Position numbers and translations under genes: made by a program | Notes under the pieces: generated by a model | Databases searched by the model: none | What the model was told of the DNA's origin: nothing | Seen by the model: only the letters and a program-made list of their open reading frames with translations | Origin: Salinivirgaceae bacterium | GTDB lineage: Bacteria; Bacteroidota; Bacteroidia; Bacteroidales; SZUA-534 | DNA: 64,000 nucleotides | Direction of reading: 5' to 3' | Assembly: GCA_024405635.1 (NCBI GenBank) | Contig: JAKSOL010000002.1 | Span: forward strand, 96,001 to 160,000 | Shown: positions 1 to 51,246 of the stretch, piece after piece | Position numbering within the stretch: position 1 is the first letter of the stretch | Layout: every line of letters starts with the position of its first letter

Positions 1-1079
1 CCTTTGCCCTCTGAATGGTGTACTGAGTAAATAAGTTTGCCGTCAAATGTTTTGAAAATCATTCCGTGACCTGAATTGTTTGCCAAGAAAGGTTCTGGTT
101 CTTGAATCCAAGGTCCTGCAATTGTGCCCGATTCGGAATAGCAAACGCATTGAATGTAGCGCCCCTTTCCCCAACTTGACCAAAGCATGCCAAGTCGGCC
201 AGTTTCTGTGCGGAACATTTGAGGTCCGTCGGTTACCCAGCCTGGCATTTTAAGTCCAAAAGTAGCTTCGCCATTTACGTTCATCTCAACAACAGCTGGG
301 TTTTCGCTTGCACGAAACATTGTTACTGGTTTTTCTGAAACAGTGTATGACAAGTCGTCCGACAATTCAATATAGTCCATGGTGCCGTCAATAATTTGAG
401 TCCACTCGTGCACAAAAACCATATATTTTTTGCCGTTTTCTTCATACAATGTTCCGTCAATACAATCCCAATTGTGAGGCTCGTAGTCGTATCCTGGTTC
501 TATAGCAAAACTCTCAAACGGACCCTCGGGCGATTTTGAACGTAGCAAATAAGTTTGGTTGTGAGGAACATTGTAACGGCGAGCAACTTGTTCAATCAAA
601 TCGCTATGGTCGCTCCATGTGCCAGCATAGTAGTAGTAATCGCCAATTTTGTGAATTTCGGCTGCTGCAGCAAAACCGGCTCTTTCAAGCCACAATCCTT
701 CAATATTTATTACGTTGTATGGGCCTTCCCACATAACAAGGTCTTTGCTTCGCCATTGGCGGCCGCCTGACGATGTGAGATAGTATGTTTTTGTAGCCTC
801 GTCGGCATAAATGTAAGGGTCGCTCATTGAAAGGTCGTTGAAATGAACTGTGCGAATTTTGTCCATTTCGGCTCTGCGGGCAGCTATTCTAGCTGCTAAT
901 CCTGTGGTGTCGGTTGTGTGTGTGCCGCCAAAGTTGTTTTGTCCTGGGTCGGCTATTGGAGCCTGTTCTCCTGGCTCAACAACTGGGTATGGGTTTGTTT
1001 TGACCTTTGTTGTTTGGTCGCTTGTGCAAGCCGATGCTGCCAATAGCAGAGCGGTTGCTAACGGAAATAGTTTTTTCAT
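1..1079 (-). CDS. Glycoside hydrolase family 43 lipoprotein (3' end runs off window)
   Basis: Manually translated from ATG at 1079: MKKLFPLATALLLAASAC (lipobox), then GH43 beta-propeller motifs MSDPYI, AAEIHKIG-YY, SPEGPF, CIDGTLY, VFVHEW, TDGPQ, GHGMIF. Missing from the ORF track because the stop lies outside the window. Confidence 0.85.
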   Translation of the reverse strand, partial: MKKLFPLATALLLAASACTSDQTTKVKTNPYPVVEPGEQAPIADPGQNNFGGTHTTDTTGLAARIAARRAEMDKIRTVHFNDLSMSDPYIYADEATKTYYLTSSGGRQWRSKDLVMWEGPYNVINIEGLWLERAGFAAAAEIHKIGDYYYYAGTWSDHSDLIEQVARRYNVPHNQTYLLRSKSPEGPFESFAIEPGYDYEPHNWDCIDGTLYEENGKKYMVFVHEWTQIIDGTMDYIELSDDLSYTVSEKPVTMFRASENPAVVEMNVNGEATFGLKMPGWVTDGPQMFRTETGRLGMLWSSWGKGRYIQCVCYSESGTIAGPWIQEPEPFLANNSGHGMIFKTFDGKLIYSVHHSEGK

Positions 1080-37237: not shown

Positions 37238-39166
37238 TCATTTAGTTATGCTGAAAGGGAACGCTGGTAGTCCTTCTTTGCTATAAAGGTTTATTTTGCC
37301 TGGGTTGTCGGCCCAAGCATAGCGAACACTTACTGGTTTTTTAACTTTTTTGCTGCTTACAATTACTTTGTTGCCAATAAGTTGCGCATCGGCCCAATAG
37401 TATTTACCATCGGCACCTGCAATTGCAAAAGCTGTAGGCGCTTTGCCGTCGGTTGTTGTAAGCCCGCTGCCGCAGTTGGTAAACTCAATGGTGGCTTTGT
37501 TGCCTTTTACCGTGAGTTTGGTTGCTGTTGGGGCGTCGGCTATTACTTTGTTGTCGCCGTAGGCTTTCGATTTTGCTTGCAGATAAACGCGATGTGCAAG
37601 GTCTTTTTTGTTGAGTGGGTGAATGTCGTTCCACTCGCCAAGGTCAATGGCACACACAAGCGATGTGTTTTCGCTTTGGTTGGCGGCATCGGCTTGTGCC
37701 TGACGCATACGAGCCCAAGTTCCGTTGCTTGGCTCGGCAACTTCTTCCATAAAGTTTGGTAGTTGAATAACAATGAAAGGTAAATTGCTGTTGTTTAAAT
37801 CTTTACGCCAACTGCTAATGAGCGTTTTTAAAAGAGGGGTGTACTCTTTGTCGTGTCCTGCATTTGATTCGCCTTGATACCAAATGGCGCCAGTGTAGTT
37901 AAATCCCAAAGCTGGAGCCAACATGCCGTTGTAAAGTCCAGCTGGTTTCCATCGAAGGAAAGCCGATGCTGGTGCGCGTCGAATGGTGCTAGCACGGCGG
38001 AATTTCCATTCTCCACTCAAGTCAATGGTGTCGTTCTCAAGTTGCAGAATATAGTCTTTGTCGGTTACAAATTCACCATTTGCACCGTTTTCAACTGCAC
38101 GTACAGCAATGTAGTTTTCACCTTCGTGCATTAGTCCATCTGGAATATCGTAGCGGCGAGGAGGGTATTGGTATCCTGTTGAACCAACTTTTTCACCGTT
38201 TATGTATATCTCGTCGGCATCAACAATTACTCCCATTATTATTTTTTGTACCGATGCTGCTTGTTCTGCCGTAAGAATAATGCGTTTAGCAAACCATAAT
38301 GCGCCTGCCGATTGCACTGTGTCAAAACAACACCAAGTGCCTGGAATAATTGCGTTTTCCCAACTTTCGATATCGGTTTCGGGGCTTTCCCAATGATTTT
38401 TGTATCCCAAGTCGAGGTTTGTTAGTTTAGTGTACCATGCATCCGACTTCTCTTTGTCTCTTTTGTTTATTTGGGCAGTTAGCGAGTCGTTTTGCATACG
38501 TTTAAGTTCGTTGTATGCAGTTGGATAAGCTTTTAGTTCTTCTTCTGAAATCCAAGCCTCAATAGGTGAGCCTCCTAAACTTACGTTCATTATGCCTATT
38601 GGAATGTTGAGGTCGCGGCTCAATTCGTCGGCAAAAAAGTAGGTAAGTGCACCAAATTGGCCAACGGTTTGTGGATTAACGGTTAGCCATTTTCCTCCGT
38701 CAAGGTCCTCTTGTGGAGCGTGAAAGTTATATCGGTCGGGTACTTTTGTGTAGCGAACGTTTTGATTATTTGCGTTTTCAATCACTCCAGGGAATATCCA
38801 TTCAACGCGGCGAATTGGTAATTCCATGTTTGATTGGCCAGAGCAAAGCCAAACATCGCCAATAAGCACATTGTTAATTACAACGGTGTCTGATGCACTA
38901 ATTGTTATGTTGTATGGCCCGCCTGCTGGTTGCGATGGAATTTTTACACTCCATTTGCCATTTTCGGCAGCAATGGCTGTGTAGTTTGCATTTTTAAAGT
39001 TTACGTTAACTTTTTCTCCAACTGAAGCCCAACCCCAAATGTTTATTTCGGCATTGCGTTGAAAAACCATATTGTCGCTAATTAGTTTTGGCATTTTTAT
39101 TTGCGCATCAATTTGGGTGGCAAACAATGTTGCTACAGCTAATAGCAATTGTCTAGTTAGTTTCAT
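37238..39166 (-). CDS. Secreted sialate O-acetylesterase (SASA)-family carbohydrate esterase with inserted beta-sandwich
   Basis: Signal peptide, SDNMVFQR, CSGQSNM, WYQGESN, DIHPLNK, VRYAW. Confidence 0.88.
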   Translation of the reverse strand: MKLTRQLLLAVATLFATQIDAQIKMPKLISDNMVFQRNAEINIWGWASVGEKVNVNFKNANYTAIAAENGKWSVKIPSQPAGGPYNITISASDTVVINNVLIGDVWLCSGQSNMELPIRRVEWIFPGVIENANNQNVRYTKVPDRYNFHAPQEDLDGGKWLTVNPQTVGQFGALTYFFADELSRDLNIPIGIMNVSLGGSPIEAWISEEELKAYPTAYNELKRMQNDSLTAQINKRDKEKSDAWYTKLTNLDLGYKNHWESPETDIESWENAIIPGTWCCFDTVQSAGALWFAKRIILTAEQAASVQKIIMGVIVDADEIYINGEKVGSTGYQYPPRRYDIPDGLMHEGENYIAVRAVENGANGEFVTDKDYILQLENDTIDLSGEWKFRRASTIRRAPASAFLRWKPAGLYNGMLAPALGFNYTGAIWYQGESNAGHDKEYTPLLKTLISSWRKDLNNSNLPFIVIQLPNFMEEVAEPSNGTWARMRQAQADAANQSENTSLVCAIDLGEWNDIHPLNKKDLAHRVYLQAKSKAYGDNKVIADAPTATKLTVKGNKATIEFTNCGSGLTTTDGKAPTAFAIAGADGKYYWADAQLIGNKVIVSSKKVKKPVSVRYAWADNPGKINLYSKEGLPAFPFSITK

Positions 39167-39184
39167 GTTCAAAAGGGTTTATGT

Positions 39185-40585
39185 TTAAAAGTTGAAATAT
39201 TGTTTCGCGTTTTTGTAGCAAATGTTTTCTACAATTCCGCCAACAAGATTAAGGTCGTTTGGCAATTCACCGTTTTCAATGTCGCGACCAAATAAGTTGC
39301 ATAAAATGCGGCGGAAATAGTCGTGACGAGGGTACGATAAAAAGCTGCGCGAGTCGGTAAGCATACCAACAAAACGGCTGAGCAAACCATGGTTCGAAAG
39401 GCAATTCAATTGTTTTTCGATGCCGTCTTTTTGGTCAAGAAACCACCATGCAGAGCCCCATTGCATTTTGCCTGCTATGGTTCCGTCTTGGAAGTTGCCA
39501 ATCATTGTTGCAAAAACTTCGTTGTCGGCTGGGTTTATGTTGTATAAAATGGTTTTTGCTAGTTGGTTTGAACTATCAAGTCGGTCAAGAAATTTTGACA
39601 TTGATTGTGCTTGACTGAAATCGCCCATGCTATCAAATCCAGTATCAGGACCTAAAGTGCTTAGCAAACGAGTGTTGTTGTTGCGTACCGGTCCAGCATG
39701 GAATTGTTGAATCCAACCTTTTGCATGCACTTGCAATGCAAATCGGTAAAGTGCTGCCGATTGAAATTTAAGCACTTCTTGTCGCGACAATTGATTGCCT
39801 TTGCGAACTTTTTGAAAAATATTTTCAATCTCAGCATCGGTGTAATCTTCGGCATATAGAAAATCCAAACCGAAGTCGGCTAAGCGACAACCGCAGTTGT
39901 GAAAGTAGTCAATACGGTTATCTAGCGCATCAAACAACGTGTTGAAACTATTTATGTCAACATTTGCAGCTTCGGCAAGTTTGTCAATGTAAGTGTTGTA
40001 ACTAACAGCATCAGCAACGGCCGAAGCTTTGTCGGGGCGCCAAGTTGGTAGTATTTTGGTTGGACAAGCTGATTGGGCAATTTGTTTGTGATATTGCAAG
40101 TTATCAATAGGATCGTCGGTTGTGCACGCCGATTCTACGTTCATCATTCTCATCATGTCCCAAACTCGCATTTTTCCACTTTGCAACATCTCTTCGGTTT
40201 GCATGTAAATGCGTTCGGCCGATTCGGCATTTAACAACTCGTCAATGCCAAAGTACATTTTAAGTTCCAAGTGGGTCCAATGGTACAATGGGTTGCGTAG
40301 TGTGTTTGGCACAGTTTCGGCCCAAGCCATAAATTTTTCAAAATCAGATGCATTGCCAGTAATGTATTTTTCGTTTATACCATTTGCACGCAATGCACGC
40401 CATTTGTAATGGTCGCCCGAAAGCCATACTTGGGCAAGGTTGTCAAATTGCTTGTTTTCAGCAATTTGTTGTGGGATAAGGTGCGAGTGGTAGTCAATAA
40501 TTGGCTGTGGTTTCGCAAAGTCGTTATATAGTTTTTGTGCAGTTTGTGTTTGCAACAAAAAATTATCGGTTATAAAAGTTTTCAT
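39185..40585 (-). CDS. uxaC: Uronate isomerase
   Basis: IIDYHSH, DHYKWR, NPLYHWTHLEL, WWFLDQ, GMLTDSRSFLSYPRH. Confidence 0.97.
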   Translation of the reverse strand: MKTFITDNFLLQTQTAQKLYNDFAKPQPIIDYHSHLIPQQIAENKQFDNLAQVWLSGDHYKWRALRANGINEKYITGNASDFEKFMAWAETVPNTLRNPLYHWTHLELKMYFGIDELLNAESAERIYMQTEEMLQSGKMRVWDMMRMMNVESACTTDDPIDNLQYHKQIAQSACPTKILPTWRPDKASAVADAVSYNTYIDKLAEAANVDINSFNTLFDALDNRIDYFHNCGCRLADFGLDFLYAEDYTDAEIENIFQKVRKGNQLSRQEVLKFQSAALYRFALQVHAKGWIQQFHAGPVRNNNTRLLSTLGPDTGFDSMGDFSQAQSMSKFLDRLDSSNQLAKTILYNINPADNEVFATMIGNFQDGTIAGKMQWGSAWWFLDQKDGIEKQLNCLSNHGLLSRFVGMLTDSRSFLSYPRHDYFRRILCNLFGRDIENGELPNDLNLVGGIVENICYKNAKQYFNF

Positions 40586-40596
40586 TGTATAAGTGT

Positions 40597-42045
40597 TTAA
40601 TCTTCAATCTTTTTGTATTGTGGAACAAGCGATTTCATTATAGACCAAGCAATAAGATAAGCTAGTCCGCAGATGCAGAATACTACGAAATAGGCTGCAG
40701 GTTTTCCTTCAAACCCCATAAACTGAATGGCTGCGCCTTGTTTTTCGGCATAATCGAAAAACATACCAGAGCCACGGTTTATAATGAATGAACTAATGCC
40801 CCCTGCCATTGTGCCAATTCCAACAATGGTTGCAACTGCCGATTTTGGAAACATGTCGCCAATGGTGCTATACAAGTTTGCGCTCCATGCTTGGTGTCCT
40901 GCGCCTACCAAACCTATTACAATTGCAGGAAACCATGCTGAAAATCCGCCCAAAGGTTGAGCAAGTAGTCCAACTAGTGGAATAAATGCAATTATTAGCA
41001 TGGCGCGCATACGGCCCGAGTATGTTTCCATGCCTTTTTGCTCAACAAAGTAGTTGGGGAGTTTGCACAGAAAAATTGAAAGTACAGTAACAATCAAATA
41101 CAAAGTCATGATAAGCAACATGCCAGTTCCCGACGATGCTTTGTATCCGTAAACATCTTGGAAATATCCAGGTGCCCAAAATAGCATAAACCACCATACT
41201 CCATCGGTAAAGAACTTGCCAACGCAAAAACTCCATGTTTGACGATAGGTGAAACATTTAAGAAACGATATTGGTTTTTCTGGTTTTGTTTCTGTGTTTG
41301 AACTTGCGATTTCTGCTGCATCGTCTTGACGAATGTAGTCAAGCTCAGCTTGATTAACGTGCTTTGAATTTTCGGGTTTGTCGTACATTTTTACAAAAAA
41401 TCCCATCCAAAAGAAACCCAATGCACCAATTATTATGAACGAGGCTTCCCATCCAAAAGCTTTGGCCAAAGGTGGAATCATTAGCGGTGCAACCAATGCG
41501 CCAACAGATGCTCCAGCGTTGAATAGTGAGGTAGCAAAGGCTCGGTCTTTTTTGGGAAAATATTCGGCAGTTACTTTAATGGCAGCCGGAAAGTTTCCGC
41601 TTTCGCCTAATCCCAATAGTGCTCGGCATCCTAAAAATAACCACACTCCTGTTGATGCAATTGCCAAGGCTGCCGCCGAACCGTTTTCAACACTGCGCAT
41701 AGCTTCAAGCGATTCGTATCCATGAATATTTTGAGTTATCACGCCACATAATGCGTGCAAGCAAGCAGCTACACTCCATAATCCTATGGCCCATAAATAA
41801 CCTTTACGTGTTCCTATCCAGTCAACAAATTTGCCCACAAACAACGTGCAAATGGCATAAAATAGCGAAAAGTAAGCTGTTACCATACCATAATCGTCGT
41901 CGGTCCAATGAAAATCGGGGTATATAAATTCTTTTGCTGTTAAACTTAAAACTTGACGGTCAAGATAATTGATGGTTGTTGCAAAAAACAGTAGGGAACA
42001 TATAACCCAACGGTATTTGCTCATTGTTTGGTTTAGTTTATTCAT
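40597..42045 (-). CDS. MFS hexuronate transporter (ExuT-like)
   Basis: RWVICSLLFFATTINYLDRQ, ESGNFPA, 12-TM pattern, upstream of uxaC. Confidence 0.9.
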   Translation of the reverse strand: MNKLNQTMSKYRWVICSLLFFATTINYLDRQVLSLTAKEFIYPDFHWTDDDYGMVTAYFSLFYAICTLFVGKFVDWIGTRKGYLWAIGLWSVAACLHALCGVITQNIHGYESLEAMRSVENGSAAALAIASTGVWLFLGCRALLGLGESGNFPAAIKVTAEYFPKKDRAFATSLFNAGASVGALVAPLMIPPLAKAFGWEASFIIIGALGFFWMGFFVKMYDKPENSKHVNQAELDYIRQDDAAEIASSNTETKPEKPISFLKCFTYRQTWSFCVGKFFTDGVWWFMLFWAPGYFQDVYGYKASSGTGMLLIMTLYLIVTVLSIFLCKLPNYFVEQKGMETYSGRMRAMLIIAFIPLVGLLAQPLGGFSAWFPAIVIGLVGAGHQAWSANLYSTIGDMFPKSAVATIVGIGTMAGGISSFIINRGSGMFFDYAEKQGAAIQFMGFEGKPAAYFVVFCICGLAYLIAWSIMKSLVPQYKKIED

Positions 42046-42069
42046 ATAAATATGGTTTTATAAATGGTT

Positions 42070-43131
42070 CTATTTGTTTGTCCAATTTGCGTGACTGTAA
42101 TAATCTACGTTCTCTTTTATAATTATATCAATGGGACTGTAGTTATCAATCTGTTTTATCTCTTTTTGCCCAAGTAAATAGTTGAATAATAGCATTATGG
42201 CTTTATACGATTGCTCGTCGGGGCGTTGGTTAAGTAAATACGAAATGTTACCTTTTTTCAAATGGTCAATATTTTCGTCAATCAAGTCGTAGCCAATAAC
42301 GCAAATGTTTTTTAATCCTTGTGCCGATGCAAAGTCAGCAAACCTAAAGGCTCGTGTGTTGGGTATAAAAATGCCGTTGAATTGTTGCTGCTTAAGAGCT
42401 TGCCCCAACGATGCGTTTGGCTCTTGCGGGTCGCTCAAGTCAATTTCAAGTTCGGTAATGCGATAGTCGTTCCCAATTGAATTGCGGAATCCAGCAACGC
42501 GTTGTTCAATATGGTTTGAGAAAATCTTATGGTTCGATTGCTTAACAATAAGCACGTTGCGGCTTGTGTGTATGTCTTTTTGCATCAGTCGTGCGGCAAT
42601 TACACCACTTTGAAAAGCGTCTTGTCCAAAGTAACCAATGTTACCCGCATTGTTTATGTTTACATCAATAAACACAAACGGAATTTGTTGAGTGTTAAGA
42701 GTTTGAATAAATTGTAATGCTGCTTGCTTAAAAACAGGACAAAGCAACACTCCATCAAACTCGTTTGCTGGTACGCTTGCTAATACGTTTATAAACGATT
42801 GCTCGCTTGAGGCGTCAAAGTGAAAGATGTTAAAATTGGTGTTGTAGTTCGATAGCTCGGCAATGGCTAAGTTTATTCCGTCCATCGGTTTTTGCCAATA
42901 TGGGTTATTGTCTTGCGAGTCGGGTATTATTACAGCAAAACGCAAACTTTTTTTCATCGACAATGCTTTGGCTTGTAAGTTGGGCGTGTATCCTAACTCG
43001 TTTATAATCTGCATAATGCGGTTATGAGTTTCTGCATTCACTTCTCCGCGGTTATGCAATACACGATCAACCGTTCCTATTGAAACGCCAGCCAAAGTGG
43101 CAATGTCTTTAATGCTTACCCGTTTTTTCAT
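42070..43131 (-). CDS. LacI-family transcriptional regulator of the hexuronate cluster
   Basis: IKDIATLAGVSIGTVDRVLHNR HTH and periplasmic-binding-fold C-terminus; start set at ATG 43131. Confidence 0.92.
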   Translation of the reverse strand: MKKRVSIKDIATLAGVSIGTVDRVLHNRGEVNAETHNRIMQIINELGYTPNLQAKALSMKKSLRFAVIIPDSQDNNPYWQKPMDGINLAIAELSNYNTNFNIFHFDASSEQSFINVLASVPANEFDGVLLCPVFKQAALQFIQTLNTQQIPFVFIDVNINNAGNIGYFGQDAFQSGVIAARLMQKDIHTSRNVLIVKQSNHKIFSNHIEQRVAGFRNSIGNDYRITELEIDLSDPQEPNASLGQALKQQQFNGIFIPNTRAFRFADFASAQGLKNICVIGYDLIDENIDHLKKGNISYLLNQRPDEQSYKAIMLLFNYLLGQKEIKQIDNYSPIDIIIKENVDYYSHANWTNK

Positions 43132-43137
43132 ACTTTT

Positions 43138-43151
43138 CGTTAACGTACACG
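43138..43151. promoter_or_regulatory. Candidate LacI-type operator CGTTAACGTACACG
   Basis: Imperfect 14-bp palindrome with central CG, 6 bp upstream of the regulator start codon. Confidence 0.5.
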
Positions 43152-43280
43152 GAACGCAAATGTAGCATTTTGTGTGAATGGTTGTCGAAAAAAAACAAAT
43201 AACTATAACGTGAAAATGCGTATAACTCAAATGCTAATTTTTGTGCATTTGTTATAGCTATTAAAGAAGTAAAAATCCGA

Positions 43281-45754: not shown

Positions 45755-46390
45755 ATGGAGTGTAAGTTGTTTGTTTTTAATCCTTTACAAGAAAATACAT
45801 ACGTGCTTTTCGACCAAACTTGCGAGGCAGTTTTGGTCGATGCTGGTAATGCTACCGAGCAGGAAGATGAACAACTTCGCACTTTTATTAAAAGCAATAA
45901 TTTGACTGTTAAGTCTTTGCTGTGTACTCATTGTCATTTTGACCATATTTTTGGTGCACAAATGATACATGGAACTTATGCGGCGCCAATTGCATTTCAC
46001 GAGGGCGACGAATTGTGGCTCGATCGTTATGTTAGCATGTGCGAAATGTTTGGTTTTTTGAATCGAGGTGAGGCACCACGTGCCGATATTATATTGCATC
46101 ATGGCGACGAAATTAGGTTTGGAAATTCAACTTTGCGCGTGATTCATGTACCTGGCCATTCGCAAGCTTGCGTTGCTTTTTATTGCGAGGCTGATAATGC
46201 ACTGTTTTGTGGCGATATTTTATTTAAAGGCAGTGTGGGAAGAGCCGATATGCCAGGTGGGGACGCTAATCAACTAGTTTCTGAAATAAAAAGTAAGTTG
46301 TTGATTTTGCCCGACCAAACTTTAGTTTACAGTGGTCATGGACCAACAACAACTATAGGCTACGAACGTAAAAACAATCCTTATTTGTAA
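45755..46390 (+). CDS. MBL-fold metallo-hydrolase (glyoxalase II-like)
   Basis: THCHFDH, PGHS, GDILF, GRAD-PGG, GHGP-TT. Confidence 0.92.
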   Translation: MECKLFVFNPLQENTYVLFDQTCEAVLVDAGNATEQEDEQLRTFIKSNNLTVKSLLCTHCHFDHIFGAQMIHGTYAAPIAFHEGDELWLDRYVSMCEMFGFLNRGEAPRADIILHHGDEIRFGNSTLRVIHVPGHSQACVAFYCEADNALFCGDILFKGSVGRADMPGGDANQLVSEIKSKLLILPDQTLVYSGHGPTTTIGYERKNNPYL

Positions 46391-46395
46391 CCAAT

Positions 46396-49300
46396 ATGCA
46401 AAACTCAGATTCAATACAATGCCATACATCGATTGTGCTGAACAATATACTGCACGAATTGCATGCTTGTCATTCTATTGACAAAGCTTTGCAGCATGTT
46501 TGTGGCATGTTGGTTGATGCTTTTAGCCAGCCACAATTGGTAGAGTGTCGCGTTTGGTATGATAAGGTGGCTTATTCAACTCCAAATTTTAATTCGCAAA
46601 GTGCCACACTTACACAAACTTTTAGCATAACCGAAAAATTAAAGGGTGGAGTAGATTTGTTTTATTGCGTTTCTAAAGACCAATCGGCTCCAAAATTTAC
46701 TTTAGATGAATATACGTTTGTAAACGATTTGTGTCAATTGCTTGAAGGGTTTGTTTCAACTTCAGAAGTAAAACGATTTTCGCTGACAAACGAAATTCAA
46801 ACCAAATCGCAAAAGGTTATGGGATTGGTTGACGATATTTTTAAAACCAACCGTAATCTTGACGAGGCGTTGGATCAAATATGTGGCATTTTGCCCACGG
46901 CTATGCGTTATCCCGCATCGGCAGCAGTGCGCATTACTTATGGCGGAAAAGTTCACTCAAACTGCCAGTTTGCCGACACTGTGTGGCATTTGCAACAACC
47001 ATTTGTGGCCGATAAGCAGCAAGGTTTGCTTGATGTTTATTATTTGCAAGAATTTCCGGTGGCCGATAATGGCCCGTTTCTTATTCAAGAACAACAATTG
47101 CTTGAGGGATTGGCTGGAATGTTAACTAGTGCGGCAATTCGCGATAGCTATTCTCGCTTGAAATATCAAAATAACGAGCGCGAAAAAGAATTGATGGCTA
47201 TTAAACGCACCACACAAATAGTTCAGTCGTTGCGTACAAAAGCCGAAACTTTGCAAGATGTTTGTAACATTTTGCCATTGTCGTGGCAGTTTCCTGATTA
47301 TACTGCGGCTCGCATTCAGTTTGAAAATCAAGATTATGCAACCGATAATTTTCGTGTTACTGAATGGGGGCAAAAAACTCAATTTGTTACAGTTGATAAC
47401 AAAAAAGGCGTAGTTGAGGTTTATTATTTAAAACAATTTCCCGAAGCTGATGAAGGTCCTTTTTTGAGTACCGAACGCGATATGTTAGCTTCTATAACGC
47501 AGTTGATTACTGGTTATTTGAATAGCTACAAGAGTACAAAAATTATACAACAAAAAGCGGTTGCATCGTCGCAAAAACACGAAACCGAAAACTTGCGAAA
47601 ATCGCTTTCAAAACAAACAAAGCCGTTGCAACAATATTTCAATCAACAAATGATTGAAAAGTACATGTATCTTGATATGATGAAGTTTAAAATCAAGCAT
47701 GTGCTATTTGTGTCAACGCTTTATGATGCGTTTTTGCTCGAAAACGACGACTCGTTTTTTGAGCGTTTTATGGGCGAGGTTTATCAATATGGATTGTTTG
47801 CCTTGCCGCGTATTACGGGAGTGTCAAGCAAAGAGGATGCCATTGAAATTATGAACGCTACACCAATTGATTTGGTAATTATTATGGTGGGCGTTGACCG
47901 CGAATTGCCAATGGAAATAGGGCAGGATATTAAGGCATTAAATCCTTCGGTGCCTGTTTATTTGTTGGTTAACAAACAAGAAGACGTTAGGTATTTCAAC
48001 GATATAATAACCACAACTCTCAGTTTCGACAAATTGTTTGTGTGGAATGGCGATGCCTCGGTGATTTTTGCAATGGTAAAATCAATAGAGGATGGCGTGA
48101 ATGTTGACAACGATACAAAAGTTGGCTTGGTGCGTGTTATTCTGTTGATTGAGGACTCGCCAAATTACTACTCGCGCTATCTGCAAATTTTGTATTCAAT
48201 TGTATTTGACCAGTTGCAGATTCTATTACCAGAGGTTGAGAAAAACGAGCTTAATAAAATTGCCAAAATACGTTCAAGGCCTAAAATACTACATGCTCGC
48301 AATTACGAGGAAGCTATTGCCGTATTTAATCGATACAAAGATTTCTTGTTGTGCGTTGTGAGCGATGTTGAGTTCGATTGGGGCGGAAGGCTTGATAAAG
48401 AGGCAGGAATAAAGTTTGTGAACTATATGCGCTCGCAAGTGTTTAGCGTGCCTGTTATTTTGCAATCGTCGGAAAATGTTGATATTCCAAATGCCGAAGA
48501 GAATAAGATTTTCTTTATAAACAAGAATTCTGAAACCTTGTTTGAAGACTTACGCAAGTATCTTATTCGTTATCTTGGTTATGGCGATTTTCTTTTCCGT
48601 ACAGGCGATGGCCGAAATATAGGAGTGGCGCGGTCGTTGCGCGAATTTGAAACGCTATTGCGTGAGGTTCCTGATGACTCATTCTATCGTCATGCCATAA
48701 AAAACCAATATTCAATATGGCTTATGGGACGTGGCGAAATTCAACTTGCACGCACCATTAACCAAATGCGCCTTGACGAGTCGAATAATGTGGCTCAAGC
48801 TCGACAGGAAATATTGGATGCTATTCAAACTTACAAGGAAGAGAAAAAGAAAGGTAAGATTTTGAATTACGACGAAACATCGACTATTGACGAGCATAAC
48901 ATTGTGAGTTTTGCCGGAGGTACAATTGGCGGCAAGGCTCGCGGTTTAGCATTTATCGATGTTCTGATTTATAACCTAAACCTTGGCGAAATTGGTAAAC
49001 GCATTAATCTATTAAGCCCAATTACGGTTGTGATTGGTACCGACGAGTTCGATAATTTTATAGCAACAAACCACTTGTTTGAAAAAGTGGTAAACTCAAA
49101 TACACCATACGAAGAAATTCGCAAGTTGTTTTTCAATGGTAAATTGTCCGACACTTTGGTAGCAAAAGTGCGCGAGTTTGCTAATCATATTAATACTCCA
49201 ATTGCAGTACGATCGTCGTCAATATCGGAAGACTCGGTAAACCAACCATTTGCAGGCGTTTTTGATACATACCTGGTGCCTAACCAAAAAGACGACAAAG

Positions 49301-50589
49301 AAAAGGTTGTAAAAAACCTTTGTGATGCAATTAAATTAGTATTTGCGTCGGTTTATTCAGACCAGGCGCGTGGCTATTTTAAAGCCATAAATCGCCAAAT
49401 TGAAGGCGAAAAAATGGCGGTTATTATACAAGAGTTAGTTGGTAGCCAGTTCGGTAACTATTATTATCCGCACATTAGCGGCGTAGCTCAGTCGCATAAT
49501 TTTTACCCAGTTGCCGATATGAAACCCGAAGAGGGTTTTGCTGTTGCAGCAATGGGACTTGGCTCGTATGTGGTCGATGGTTGGAAATCGTATCGTTTCT
49601 CGCCTCGCTATCCAAAAGTGTCAATGTACACAACTAAATCGTTGTTACACAATACACAAACACAATTTTACGCGCTTGACACAACTATGCAAGATGTTGA
49701 CTTTTTGGAGCATGGCGAACTTGCAGCGGTAAAATTGCTTGATACTTACGAGGCGGAAAAACATGGTTCAATGAAACATTTGGCATCGGTTTACGACGCA
49801 AACAACGATTCTATTTATCCCGGGCTTGATAAACCTGGTGCACGCATTATAAACTTTGCCAATATCTTACAATACAATTACATTCCTCTTGCCGAAACTA
49901 TCGACTTGATTCTTAATGCTGTGAAAGAGGCGTTTGGCTCGCCAGTTGAGATTGAGTATGCGGTAAATCTTAATAGAGGATTAAATGGACTACCATCGTT
50001 TTACTTATTGCAGATTAAACCATTGGTTGGCGCCGACCGCTCAAAATTTAATCCAAAACTGCTTGAAAATAAGGACGATATGTTTCTTTATACCAAGTTG
50101 TGTTTGGGTAACGGTGTGATTGATGATATTGAAGATGTGGTTTACATTGACAACGACAAGTTCTCAAAAATGGAAACCGTTGAAATGGCTAAGGAAATAG
50201 ATACCATTAACAATATAATGATTAGCGAAAAACGCAAATACATACTCATTGGTCCAGGTCGATGGGGAACTAGCGACCGTTTTTTGGGAGTTCCAGTCGA
50301 TTGGTCGCAAATTTCAAATGCGCGAGTGATTGTTGAGGAAAGCCTAGATAATTATCCGCTAGATTTTTCGCTCGGTTCACACTTTTTCCATAATGTAACC
50401 TCAATGAATATAGGTTATTTTGCTGTTCAAAGCTATTCTAAACAAAACTTTATTCGTTGGGAAGTGCTTGAAAAACAGGAGCTTGTGCGTCAAACTGCAC
50501 ATTTCCGCCATGTGCGGTTTAAACAGCCTATTAAGGTGATTATGGATGGTACAAATAAAGAGTCAGCAATTTTTTACAAAAATTTTTAG
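46396..50589 (+). CDS. PEP-synthase/PPDK N-terminal (ATP-grasp) domain protein with 3 GAF-like repeats and 2 receiver-like domains
   Basis: IGGKARGL, IAVRSSS-SEDS, FAGVFDT, MAVIIQE, PVEIEYA, LLQIKP; REC-like VILLIEDS...VVSD; terminal SLGSHFFHN; no pyruvate-binding barrel. Confidence 0.85.
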   Translation: MQNSDSIQCHTSIVLNNILHELHACHSIDKALQHVCGMLVDAFSQPQLVECRVWYDKVAYSTPNFNSQSATLTQTFSITEKLKGGVDLFYCVSKDQSAPKFTLDEYTFVNDLCQLLEGFVSTSEVKRFSLTNEIQTKSQKVMGLVDDIFKTNRNLDEALDQICGILPTAMRYPASAAVRITYGGKVHSNCQFADTVWHLQQPFVADKQQGLLDVYYLQEFPVADNGPFLIQEQQLLEGLAGMLTSAAIRDSYSRLKYQNNEREKELMAIKRTTQIVQSLRTKAETLQDVCNILPLSWQFPDYTAARIQFENQDYATDNFRVTEWGQKTQFVTVDNKKGVVEVYYLKQFPEADEGPFLSTERDMLASITQLITGYLNSYKSTKIIQQKAVASSQKHETENLRKSLSKQTKPLQQYFNQQMIEKYMYLDMMKFKIKHVLFVSTLYDAFLLENDDSFFERFMGEVYQYGLFALPRITGVSSKEDAIEIMNATPIDLVIIMVGVDRELPMEIGQDIKALNPSVPVYLLVNKQEDVRYFNDIITTTLSFDKLFVWNGDASVIFAMVKSIEDGVNVDNDTKVGLVRVILLIEDSPNYYSRYLQILYSIVFDQLQILLPEVEKNELNKIAKIRSRPKILHARNYEEAIAVFNRYKDFLLCVVSDVEFDWGGRLDKEAGIKFVNYMRSQVFSVPVILQSSENVDIPNAEENKIFFINKNSETLFEDLRKYLIRYLGYGDFLFRTGDGRNIGVARSLREFETLLREVPDDSFYRHAIKNQYSIWLMGRGEIQLARTINQMRLDESNNVAQARQEILDAIQTYKEEKKKGKILNYDETSTIDEHNIVSFAGGTIGGKARGLAFIDVLIYNLNLGEIGKRINLLSPITVVIGTDEFDNFIATNHLFEKVVNSNTPYEEIRKLFFNGKLSDTLVAKVREFANHINTPIAVRSSSISEDSVNQPFAGVFDTYLVPNQKDDKEKVVKNLCDAIKLVFASVYSDQARGYFKAINRQIEGEKMAVIIQELVGSQFGNYYYPHISGVAQSHNFYPVADMKPEEGFAVAAMGLGSYVVDGWKSYRFSPRYPKVSMYTTKSLLHNTQTQFYALDTTMQDVDFLEHGELAAVKLLDTYEAEKHGSMKHLASVYDANNDSIYPGLDKPGARIINFANILQYNYIPLAETIDLILNAVKEAFGSPVEIEYAVNLNRGLNGLPSFYLLQIKPLVGADRSKFNPKLLENKDDMFLYTKLCLGNGVIDDIEDVVYIDNDKFSKMETVEMAKEIDTINNIMISEKRKYILIGPGRWGTSDRFLGVPVDWSQISNARVIVEESLDNYPLDFSLGSHFFHNVTSMNIGYFAVQSYSKQNFIRWEVLEKQELVRQTAHFRHVRFKQPIKVIMDGTNKESAIFYKNF

Positions 50590-50592
50590 TCT

Positions 50593-51246
50593 ATGATATA
50601 CGTTGGAATATTTGGTTCGCACAAAATGATGATTGATTGTATAAGCGCCTATGTGTCTGCTTTTTCAGAATTAAAAATCGTTACAGCCACATCCAGCAAA
50701 GACACTCTTTTTGATAAGTTGAAACAATATACCGTGCATGTTTTGGTAGTCAACCTATTTGAAATATCAACTTCGGAACAAAATTTTATAGTCGATTTGA
50801 AACTCAAATTTCCAAAGTTGAAAATAGTCTTGCTCACAAATGCAAACCGAAGCGAAGATGTGATTAAGTCAATCAAAGCTGGAGCAAATGGATTCATCAC
50901 TATGGGAGCTGGCGGTGAGGAACTTATTCAAGCAATTTACTCGTTGCGTAGTGGCCACGATTATTACGACAATTCAATTGCGCAGATACTGATGAACCGC
51001 CGAGCTAACGACATTGATAAAGGTATTGACAACGACGAGGAGTCTGCTGATGCTTTAAGCTCTCGTCAGGTTGAGATATTGCGACTATGGGGTAACGGAT
51101 GCAGTAACCAGGAGATTGCAGATAAATTGTTTATTAGTATTCGTACGGTTGAAACTCACAAGAACCACATTATGCAAAAACTGAACTTGAAGAGTACTGT
51201 TGATTTGATAAAGTTTGCTATTAAGAACAACATTATCAAAATTTAG
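50593..51246 (+). CDS. NarL/LuxR-family regulator with degenerate (pseudo) receiver domain
   Basis: LSSRQVEIL..SNQEIADKLFISIRTVETHKNHIMQKL LuxR HTH; REC fold lacking acidic pocket. Confidence 0.9.
   Translation: MIYVGIFGSHKMMIDCISAYVSAFSELKIVTATSSKDTLFDKLKQYTVHVLVVNLFEISTSEQNFIVDLKLKFPKLKIVLLTNANRSEDVIKSIKAGANGFITMGAGGEELIQAIYSLRSGHDYYDNSIAQILMNRRANDIDKGIDNDEESADALSSRQVEILRLWGNGCSNQEIADKLFISIRTVETHKNHIMQKLNLKSTVDLIKFAIKNNIIKI

Follow-up and report, generated by a model that had tools for sequence, protein, structure and literature searches.

A histidine kinase that derives from pyruvate phosphate dikinase (PPDK) has been described in Mycobacterium tuberculosis. In the passages of the 2026 publication that describe it, this protein, VadK (Rv1127c), has no pyruvate barrel, autophosphorylates on His422, and binds two enzymes of the methylcitrate cycle, methylcitrate synthase and dehydratase (PMC13400623). 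Hence, the concept of a histidine autokinase that descends from PPDK and not from the GHKL kinases already has a precedent. Here we describe a much larger protein of related architecture, P0001, which is encoded in a 64,000-nucleotide stretch of DNA (the window) from a Salinivirgaceae bacterium (assembly GCA_024405635.1, contig JAKSOL010000002.1). The REC-PPDK architecture of P0001, in which receiver domains are joined to a PPDK domain, has already been catalogued (PMC5847659). The passages of that catalogue that list it give the architecture only, and do not speak of a function, the carrier domain, the long form with GAF domains, a regulator partner, or a linkage to the glutamate dehydrogenase gene gdh. 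A survey of receivers without the phospho-accepting aspartate (Asp-less receivers) reports, in the part that concerns effector domains, that such receivers are enriched together with PPDK effector domains (PMC4395418). This agrees with the first receiver of P0001.

The P0001 gene occupies positions 46396..50589 of the window and encodes 1397 amino acids; it lies on the forward strand, as does every feature given below unless stated otherwise. Three bases separate it (TAG-TCT-ATG) from the gene of P0002, a LuxR/NarL-type regulator of 217 amino acids with an Asp-less receiver (50593..51246). The domains of P0001 are, in order, three GAF-like repeats, an Asp-less receiver, a canonical receiver, a DUF5752-like domain, an ATP-grasp domain of the PPDK_N type, and a tail of 180 residues. 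An initial annotation, made from the sequence alone, had described the pair as a candidate phosphorelay built on a histidine autokinase. The two open reading frames and the 3-bp gap were as it had described them.

The best explanation of P0001 is that it is a signal-integrating regulatory enzyme rather than a metabolic phosphoenolpyruvate (PEP) synthase. The more specific reading that we prefer has, in our estimate, a probability of about one half. In this reading P0001 is a regulatory dikinase gated by receivers and ligands: ATP loads a histidine of the tail, H1329, the carrier, once loaded, binds or modifies the behaviour of a partner that belongs to a glutamate dehydrogenase (GDH) control circuit, and the Asp-less LuxR-type regulator is the transcriptional arm of this circuit.

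Domains of P0001

The ATP-grasp domain (residues 844-1215, 48925..50040) is the sole domain of P0001 that exceeds its Pfam cut-off (PF01326, E 7.5e-41), and the same family matches 49 of 49 relatives. Residues 420-1397 were modelled with AlphaFold from 85 sequences, with a pLDDT of 90.8 and a pTM of 0.84; positions marked "model" below count along this model. The ATP-grasp fold reaches Z 23.9 against the ATP domain of rifampin phosphotransferase (RPH; 5hv6_A), within a range of Z 17-26. We assessed conservation in 85 relatives that are 30-45% identical to P0001. All 85 keep G845, G846, K847, R939, S940, S941, E945, D946, E1187, and Q1206 in the ATP-grasp domain, and all 85 keep R1289, E1314, S1325, G1327, and H1329 (codon 50380-50382) in the tail. 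As far as sequences can tell, this is the pattern of invariance to be expected of a working ATP-grasp domain and a working carrier histidine.

Sequence comparison with known dikinases reaches the ATP-grasp domain and goes no further. The NCBIfam models of PEP synthase, PigC/RedH, and RPH match this part of P0001 only and score far under their cut-offs (at most 65 bits against 598-883 for PEP synthase, and 30 bits against 999 for RPH). Searching the PDB with the whole P0001 sequence returned only weak ATP-grasp matches, with E values of 0.036 or worse. A profile of the family aligned by hhalign with the PPDK of the same genome covers the first 47 columns of the ATP-grasp domain only (E 0.013).

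The PEP/pyruvate TIM-barrel (PF02896) has no match in P0001, which ends at residue 1397, straight after the carrier domain. PEP-utilizers, PEP-utilizers_C, HisKA, and HATPase_c also have no Pfam match in the protein. Because the pyruvate barrel is missing, P0001 is not a PEP synthase or PPDK, as the initial annotation had argued. Two of the checks that it had proposed, a Pfam parse and an AlphaFold model, both find PPDK_N present and the barrel missing.

Judged from the model, the tail (residues ~1219-1397, 50050..50586) is a divergent carrier domain of the swivel phospho-His type at the level of its fold, which matches the His domains of 2ols, 1dik, and 5hv3. The alignment with PEP synthase 2ols spans 362 residues (Z 26.3, model 402..977, chain 11..467), that with RPH 5hv3 spans 386 residues (Z 26.1, model 412..976, chain 7..866), and that with PPDK 1dik spans 349 residues (Z 19.0, model 405..978, chain 2..512). 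PPDK conformers in which the His domain has swung away (5jvl, 1vbg, 5lu4) align over 228-235 residues; these alignments include the ATP-grasp domain only and end near model residue 795. In the same way the RPH conformers 5hv1 and 5fbs align over 269-286 residues (286 for 5hv1), against 386 for 5hv3. Hence, the 100-115 extra residues that align in the docked conformers should be the carrier domain, which in the model is docked on the nucleotide domain.

The motif around the conserved histidine is unusual. P0001 has S1325-L-G-S-H1329-F-F-H where canonical swivel domains have G-G-x-T-S-H-A-A, and the arginine that closes the canonical motif has no counterpart in the tail. A weak hhalign alignment (E 0.16) pairs G-S-H1329 with the T-S-H of the canonical motif. 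H1329 occupies the N-terminal end of a modelled helix (model 909-917), and the catalytic histidine of PPDK has the same kind of position. A search of the ESM Atlas with the tail gave scores of 0.88, which is under the level that counts.

Two receivers precede the dikinase core. The first (residues 433-569, 47692..48102) has a receiver fold with Z 13.4 to 8imw_B (model 14..152). Its strands 1 and 3 end in VSTL and IIMVG and carry no acidic residue at these ends, so we call it Asp-less. The second (residues 579-731, 48130..48588) matches 4mld_A with Z 14.9 and carries E586 and D587 (in I585-E586-D587-S588), D657 (codon 48364-48366), S691 (of the pair S691/S692), and K710 at strand ends. Both folds score Z 13-15 against many receivers. 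The initial annotation had named a receiver-like domain followed by a receiver, and its motifs (IEDS, D657, S691/S692, K710, and SLGSH1329FFH further downstream) are located where it had put them. Among 78 relatives that bear receivers, E586 is kept in 74, D587 in 65, D657 in 68, S691 in 70, and K710 in 73, and the sites of receiver 2 are at least 90% conserved in 52 long-form relatives. PF00072 stays below the Pfam cut-off in P0001 and matches 32 of 49 relatives. The sequence of receiver 2 alone found nothing meaningful in the PDB. By Foldseek the tandem receivers match PleD (E 1.4e-7).

The linker between the receivers (residues 559-574, window positions 48070-48117) is itself strongly conserved: E565 is present in 78 of the 78 receiver-bearing relatives and D566 in 77, and the two residues are part of a conserved "ED..N...D" consensus motif. 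A second linker, between receiver 2 and the ATP-grasp domain, is a DUF5752-like domain (residues ~732-822, 48589..48861). PF19027 matches it weakly in P0001 (E 0.005-0.011) and matches 27 of 49 relatives, with a best E value of 4.9e-7.

The N-terminal 430 residues were modelled separately, from 53 aligned sequences (pLDDT 83.1). They form three repeats of about 125 amino acids; in each, a pair of helices is followed by four strands and then by a long helix that connects to the next part. Since there are only four strands, we call the repeats reduced GAF-like domains. With the whole model of residues 1-430, the top Foldseek matches are tandem GAF/PHY arrays of phytochromes and GAF pairs of phosphodiesterases (E 7e-6 to 1e-3). 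A second, independent structure search, against 48,161 chains, matched single repeats to single GAF domains with Z 9.7-12.0 and root-mean-square deviations (rmsd) of 2.2-2.9 over 90-122 residues. Repeat 1 (residues ~7-132, 46414..46791) matches 4g3k (Z 11.1) and the GAF domain of KdpD (4y2f, Z 9.8). Repeat 2 (residues ~127-257, 46774..47166) matches 3cit (Z 12.0, rmsd 2.4, 122 residues aligned) and the GAF domain of PtsP (3trc, Z 11.7), and repeat 3 (residues ~269-378, 47200..47529) matches 6mgh (Z 9.7) and 6uvb (Z 8.7). The three GAF-like repeats of the initial annotation are thus borne out at fold level (Z 9.7-12.0), though Pfam GAF has no match in P0001 at E values up to 0.1. The modelled repeats are GAF-like by their fold and lie beyond the reach of sequence models.

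Links to glutamate dehydrogenase and to the regulator

The loci of relatives revealed a link that the initial annotation did not contain. In 25 of the 40 loci that we fetched, gdh lies beside the gene of the P0001 family. This count, of gdh genes anywhere within the fetched stretch, comprises 12 of 20 loci of the long form and 13 of 20 loci of the forms of ~1150 and ~1000 amino acids. By chance we would expect gdh in roughly 1% of 18-kb stretches, if a genome of ~3.5 Mb carries the gene once or twice. Seven loci have the regulator directly upstream of gdh (L033, L034, L036, L040, L043, L044, and L046). When coordinate lists were compared by hand, sensor and gdh were within a few kb of each other in at least 52 of 200 other genomes. 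This link between the P0001 family and gdh is new here.

The forms of the sensor differ in the GDH with which they pair. Long sensors and those of ~1150 amino acids are found with GDH enzymes that are 75-82% identical to the enzyme of our genome, and sensors of ~1000 amino acids with GDH enzymes that are 60-66% identical to it. Two sensor and two GDH lineages often share one cluster in the order gdhA, long sensor, short sensor, gdhB (L083-L096, L041, and L047). In one genome (G116, L087:8407-14870) the ~1150- and ~1000-residue sensors form a single frame of 2154 amino acids with no stop between them. Three representative proteins of 1523-1654 amino acids (P0133, P0185, and P0213) match the module twice and may be similar fusions.

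The family is widespread. Library searches returned at least 7998 proteins. With the C-terminal module, a library clustered at 50% identity yielded 3284 cluster representatives at E ≤0.001, and 183 of the 201 sampled genomes of the order contain this module; our genome has one copy. Profiling the presence and absence of gdh against that of the sensor was dropped as uninformative, with gdh found in 195 of the 201 genomes. A pattern search of genome contigs with the single P0001 protein gave 58 matches, none of which was confirmed.

The regulator P0002 has a GerE helix-turn-helix domain (PF00196, E 1.3e-20, residues 154-209, 51052-51219) and aligns end to end with VraR (5hev, E 2.6e-19, residues 2-216) and other regulators of the NarL family. 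Its receiver scores 24.9 bits against a cut-off of 30.2. Compared with VraR, the acidic pair is replaced by G/S, the acceptor aspartate by N54, and the lysine by M104. The description of P0002 as a pseudo-receiver regulator is therefore correct. In 18 orthologues the acceptor column contains N in 10, D in 5, E in 2, and V in 1, such that the aspartate is missing in 13 of 18; the lysine position varies too. To judge from these substitutions, the receivers of this lineage are freed from the constraints of phosphorylation.

How tightly the regulator is linked to the sensor depends on the clade. In the first 29 related loci, viewed with 1.5-kb flanks, a regulator follows the sensor gene in five, and all five sensors are 1434-1558 amino acids long. 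In the 20 loci of the long form (1261-1573 amino acids), a regulator lies directly downstream on the same strand in seven and within ~2 kb on the other strand in four. In a maximum-likelihood tree of 52 C-terminal modules, computed by a quick search after one duplicate row had been removed, P0001 falls into a clade of 11 members (SH-aLRT 99). The regulator is nearby in 10 of these 11: nine by automated label, plus L036, where the match was lost at a stricter cut-off. The eleventh member is the closest relative of P0001, with 61% identity in the C-terminal module. Its genome (G140) does encode a regulator, 53% identical to P0002, on another contig, and its sensor, regulator, and gdh are on three separate contigs (C8, C50, and C4). 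The branch of P0001 and G140 seems to be dispersing the cluster. The initial annotation had named the lack of a conserved linkage to the regulator as a finding that would refute it; this linkage is conserved in the P0001 clade, but not throughout the long form.

Upstream of P0001 lies a gene for an MBL-fold (GloB-like) hydrolase (45755..46390, Lactamase_B E 1.4e-27). Its stop is 5 bp from the start of P0001, which makes it a probable operon partner of the sensor gene, and hydrolase, P0001, and P0002 probably form one operon. No homologue of the hydrolase was found in 20 related long-form loci; hence, it is probably a local addition to the operon. The other neighbours in the window (genes for AraC-type, SPOR, deacetylase, L31, MTHFS, RimM, and TPR proteins) are not kept beside the relatives of P0001, and a scan for sigma-70 promoters and terminators was uninformative for the locus. 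The claim that there is no HisKA/HATPase_c kinase nearby withstood our search: none of the 17 HATPase_c matches of the genome falls into the 64-kb window, and the one nearest to the P0001 gene (C12:54520) is ~88 kb away. On the reverse strand at 37238-43230 the window contains a cluster for sugar-acid utilisation, with a SASA-type esterase with a GH2 sugar-binding domain, the glucuronate isomerase UxaC, an MFS transporter, and a LacI-type regulator. This cluster is unrelated to the sensor-regulator pair.

Proposed mechanism and rival explanations

How could a regulatory dikinase of this kind work? If the chemistry of PPDK, PEP synthase, RPH, and VadK is a guide, the ATP-grasp domain would phosphorylate H1329, and the phospho-His form of P0001 would then act on a partner or bind it. 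The architecture, which resembles that of PleD and PorX, suggests that an unlinked histidine kinase phosphorylates D657, and that this phosphorylation, together with a ligand on the GAF repeats, would gate the dikinase. Gene neighbourhoods point to glutamate dehydrogenase as the target of the circuit. In the P0001 clade the transcriptional arm would be the Asp-less LuxR-type regulator, whose gene immediately precedes gdh in relatives; in our own genome the sensor-regulator pair is intact and gdh is elsewhere.

Several observations weigh against this reading. The identification of H1329 with the catalytic histidine draws on a weak hhalign alignment, on its position at the start of a helix, and on its invariance. 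PF00391 does not match the tail of P0001 or of any of 49 relatives, and in our genome it matches only the full-length PPDK of 909 amino acids. When a profile of the tail was aligned with 27 PEP-utilizers segments, the hhalign probability was 0.4% and the E value 0.16, which is not significant; 24 of these 27 segments were near-identical PPDKs, and 3 of the 30 fetched loci had been dropped for want of the motif pattern. Of the 20 long-form loci, 9 show no regulator within the stretch that was fetched. The gdh gene of our genome lies on another contig (C7) among unrelated neighbours and is thus not linked to P0001. Across the 201 genomes gdh was found in 195, and these include some of the 18 in which the sensor family was not detected. 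Hence, the family is not needed for the presence of gdh, and the sensor can be an accessory controller at most. Finally, we found no functional study of the family in the literature, only catalogue mentions, with supplements outside the scope of the search.

One could also argue that P0001 is a self-contained phosphorelay that is independent of GHKL kinases: the ATP-grasp domain would load H1329, from which the swivel domain would transfer the phosphate to D657 of the same protein, and the phosphorylated receiver would alter how P0001 binds its partners, the regulator and GDH. This would be chemically natural, as receivers are known to accept phosphate from phospho-His donors. H1329 and D657 are both conserved, the window contains no kinase gene, N-terminal sensors are typical of kinases and less so of response regulators, and the model packs the receivers on the dikinase core (pTM 0.84). 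However, the histidine is retained where the aspartate or the receivers are gone. H1329 is present in 85 of 85 relatives, whereas the aspartate is missing in 10 of 78 receiver-bearing relatives and the receivers are missing in 7 of 85, although some of these short forms may be fragments. Furthermore, PleD-type response regulators have the same REC-REC-enzyme order, and Foldseek finds the fold of the tandem receivers similar to theirs (E 1.4e-7). In 13 of 18 orthologues the partner regulator has no acceptor aspartate, and a cognate kinase could be among the 17 HATPase_c matches outside the window. We therefore regard the self-relay as unlikely. Of the autokinase interpretation that the initial annotation had put forward, the swivel fold, the invariant H1329, and the kept ATP-grasp residues stand and make a regulatory dikinase plausible, but an obligatory relay is disfavoured. 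A broader version, a kinase-independent pathway of Bacteroidota for nitrogen and carbon status whose phosphorelay would be built on a metabolic dikinase and not on a GHKL kinase, seems to us a little more doubtful still. Under it, the GAF-like repeats would respond to a metabolite, for instance 2-oxoglutarate or glutamine. The dikinase core would use ATP to phosphorylate H1329, and the swivel domain would pass the phosphate to the receiver aspartate of the same protein or directly to GDH. Protein contact would then switch the Asp-less LuxR-type partner and so set gdh transcription. If true, such a pathway could explain the "trans-acting gene(s)" affecting GdhA activity in Bacteroides thetaiotaomicron that are named in the title of Baggio and Morrison (1996).

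To our knowledge, almost all characterised barrel-less relatives of the dikinases act on small molecules or glucans. P0001 could be a receiver-regulated small-molecule dikinase, like RPH, phenylphosphate synthase, or HpeHI. It would then phosphorylate a metabolite with a hydroxyl group, for which the DUF5752-like domain or inserts in the ATP-grasp domain would provide the binding site. The top structural matches are RPH and HpeI, the partial NCBIfam matches are to the ATP domains of PEP synthase, PigC/RedH, and RPH, and the core exceeds the size of an ATP-grasp plus a swivel domain by an estimated ~120 residues. It is nevertheless improbable that this is the function of P0001. The fusion to sensors and receivers, the DNA-binding partner, and the gdh linkage favour signalling, two types of sensor paralogue pair with two different GDH paralogues, and the Pfam scan of P0001 contains no known kind of substrate-binding domain. 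Very unlikely, in our view, is a core that is catalytically silent and serves as an ATP/ADP-sensing or scaffold module in which the conserved histidine is structural. The carrier domain is indeed highly divergent, with S-L-G-S-H-F-F-H for G-G-x-T-S-H-A-A and the closing arginine gone, but residues of the nucleotide- and metal-binding type and the histidine are invariant over 85 sequences that are only 30-45% identical, as expected for catalysis. That P0001 is an ordinary PEP synthase or PPDK with added regulatory domains is extremely improbable. In databases the relatives do carry such names, either "PEP/pyruvate-binding domain-containing protein" or "phosphoenolpyruvate synthase/pyruvate phosphate dikinase". 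The PEP/pyruvate TIM-barrel is missing, however, NCBIfam PEP synthase scores are far below their cut-offs, and the genome encodes a separate full-length PPDK of 909 amino acids.

Comparison with known systems

Should the core prove to be a regulatory dikinase that phosphorylates itself, then the P0001 family would be the second case after VadK, and a far more widespread one, of a metabolic dikinase that has turned into a signalling kinase. In this case the kinase would be connected to two-component receivers, to ligand sensors, and to a transcription factor. The common annotation of such proteins as "PEP synthase" would have to be corrected, and Bacteroidota of the gut and the environment would have a testable candidate for a factor that controls GDH, either after translation or at transcription. 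GDH is the enzyme at the junction of carbon and nitrogen metabolism, and genes of the P0001 family adjoin gdh in most of the loci examined.

Compared by architecture alone, and as far as the passages on VadK describe it, both proteins have an ATP-binding domain, a phospho-His domain (in P0001 at the level of the fold), and no pyruvate barrel, and VadK has a regulatory rather than a metabolic role, as we propose for P0001. VadK is, however, a truncated true PPDK of ~50 kDa without sensor or receiver domains. P0001, in contrast, has a carrier domain that is too divergent for the hidden Markov model of PEP-utilizers, is fused to three GAF-like repeats and two receivers, and belongs to a family that is linked to gdh and a LuxR-type regulator. 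RPH (5hv1, 5hv3, 5fbs) is among the top fold matches (Z 26.1-26.3) and shares with P0001 an ATP-grasp domain, at fold level a swivel His domain, and the lack of a pyruvate barrel. It differs in having a rifampin-binding domain and no signalling domains, and the structural alignment with P0001 shows an identity of 17-20%. PEP synthase and PPDK (2ols, 1dik) share the ATP-grasp fold, the docked position of the carrier, and the invariant Lys, Arg, Glu, and Gln (K847, R939, E1187, and Q1206 in P0001), whereas P0001 has no TIM-barrel and no match to PF00391.

On the signalling side, PleD-type regulators resemble P0001 in that an enzymatic output follows a pair of receivers, of which one accepts phosphate and the other is an Asp-less adaptor. 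The true and the Asp-less receiver stand in the opposite order in P0001, which has a dikinase core instead of GGDEF as its output and the GAF-like sensors in addition. The GHKL histidine kinases combine HisKA/DHp with HATPase_c, and neither was found in the Pfam scan of P0001. EI-Ntr (PtsP) also places a GAF domain, the one matched by repeat 2 (3trc, Z 11.7), in front of a phosphotransfer enzyme with a swivel histidine. Glutamine and 2-oxoglutarate act on the GAF domain of EI-Ntr. EI-Ntr has a role in nitrogen signalling, and a nitrogen context for P0001 is suggested by the gdh linkage. Unlike P0001, EI-Ntr has no ATP-grasp domain; it is loaded from PEP and passes its phosphate to NPr.

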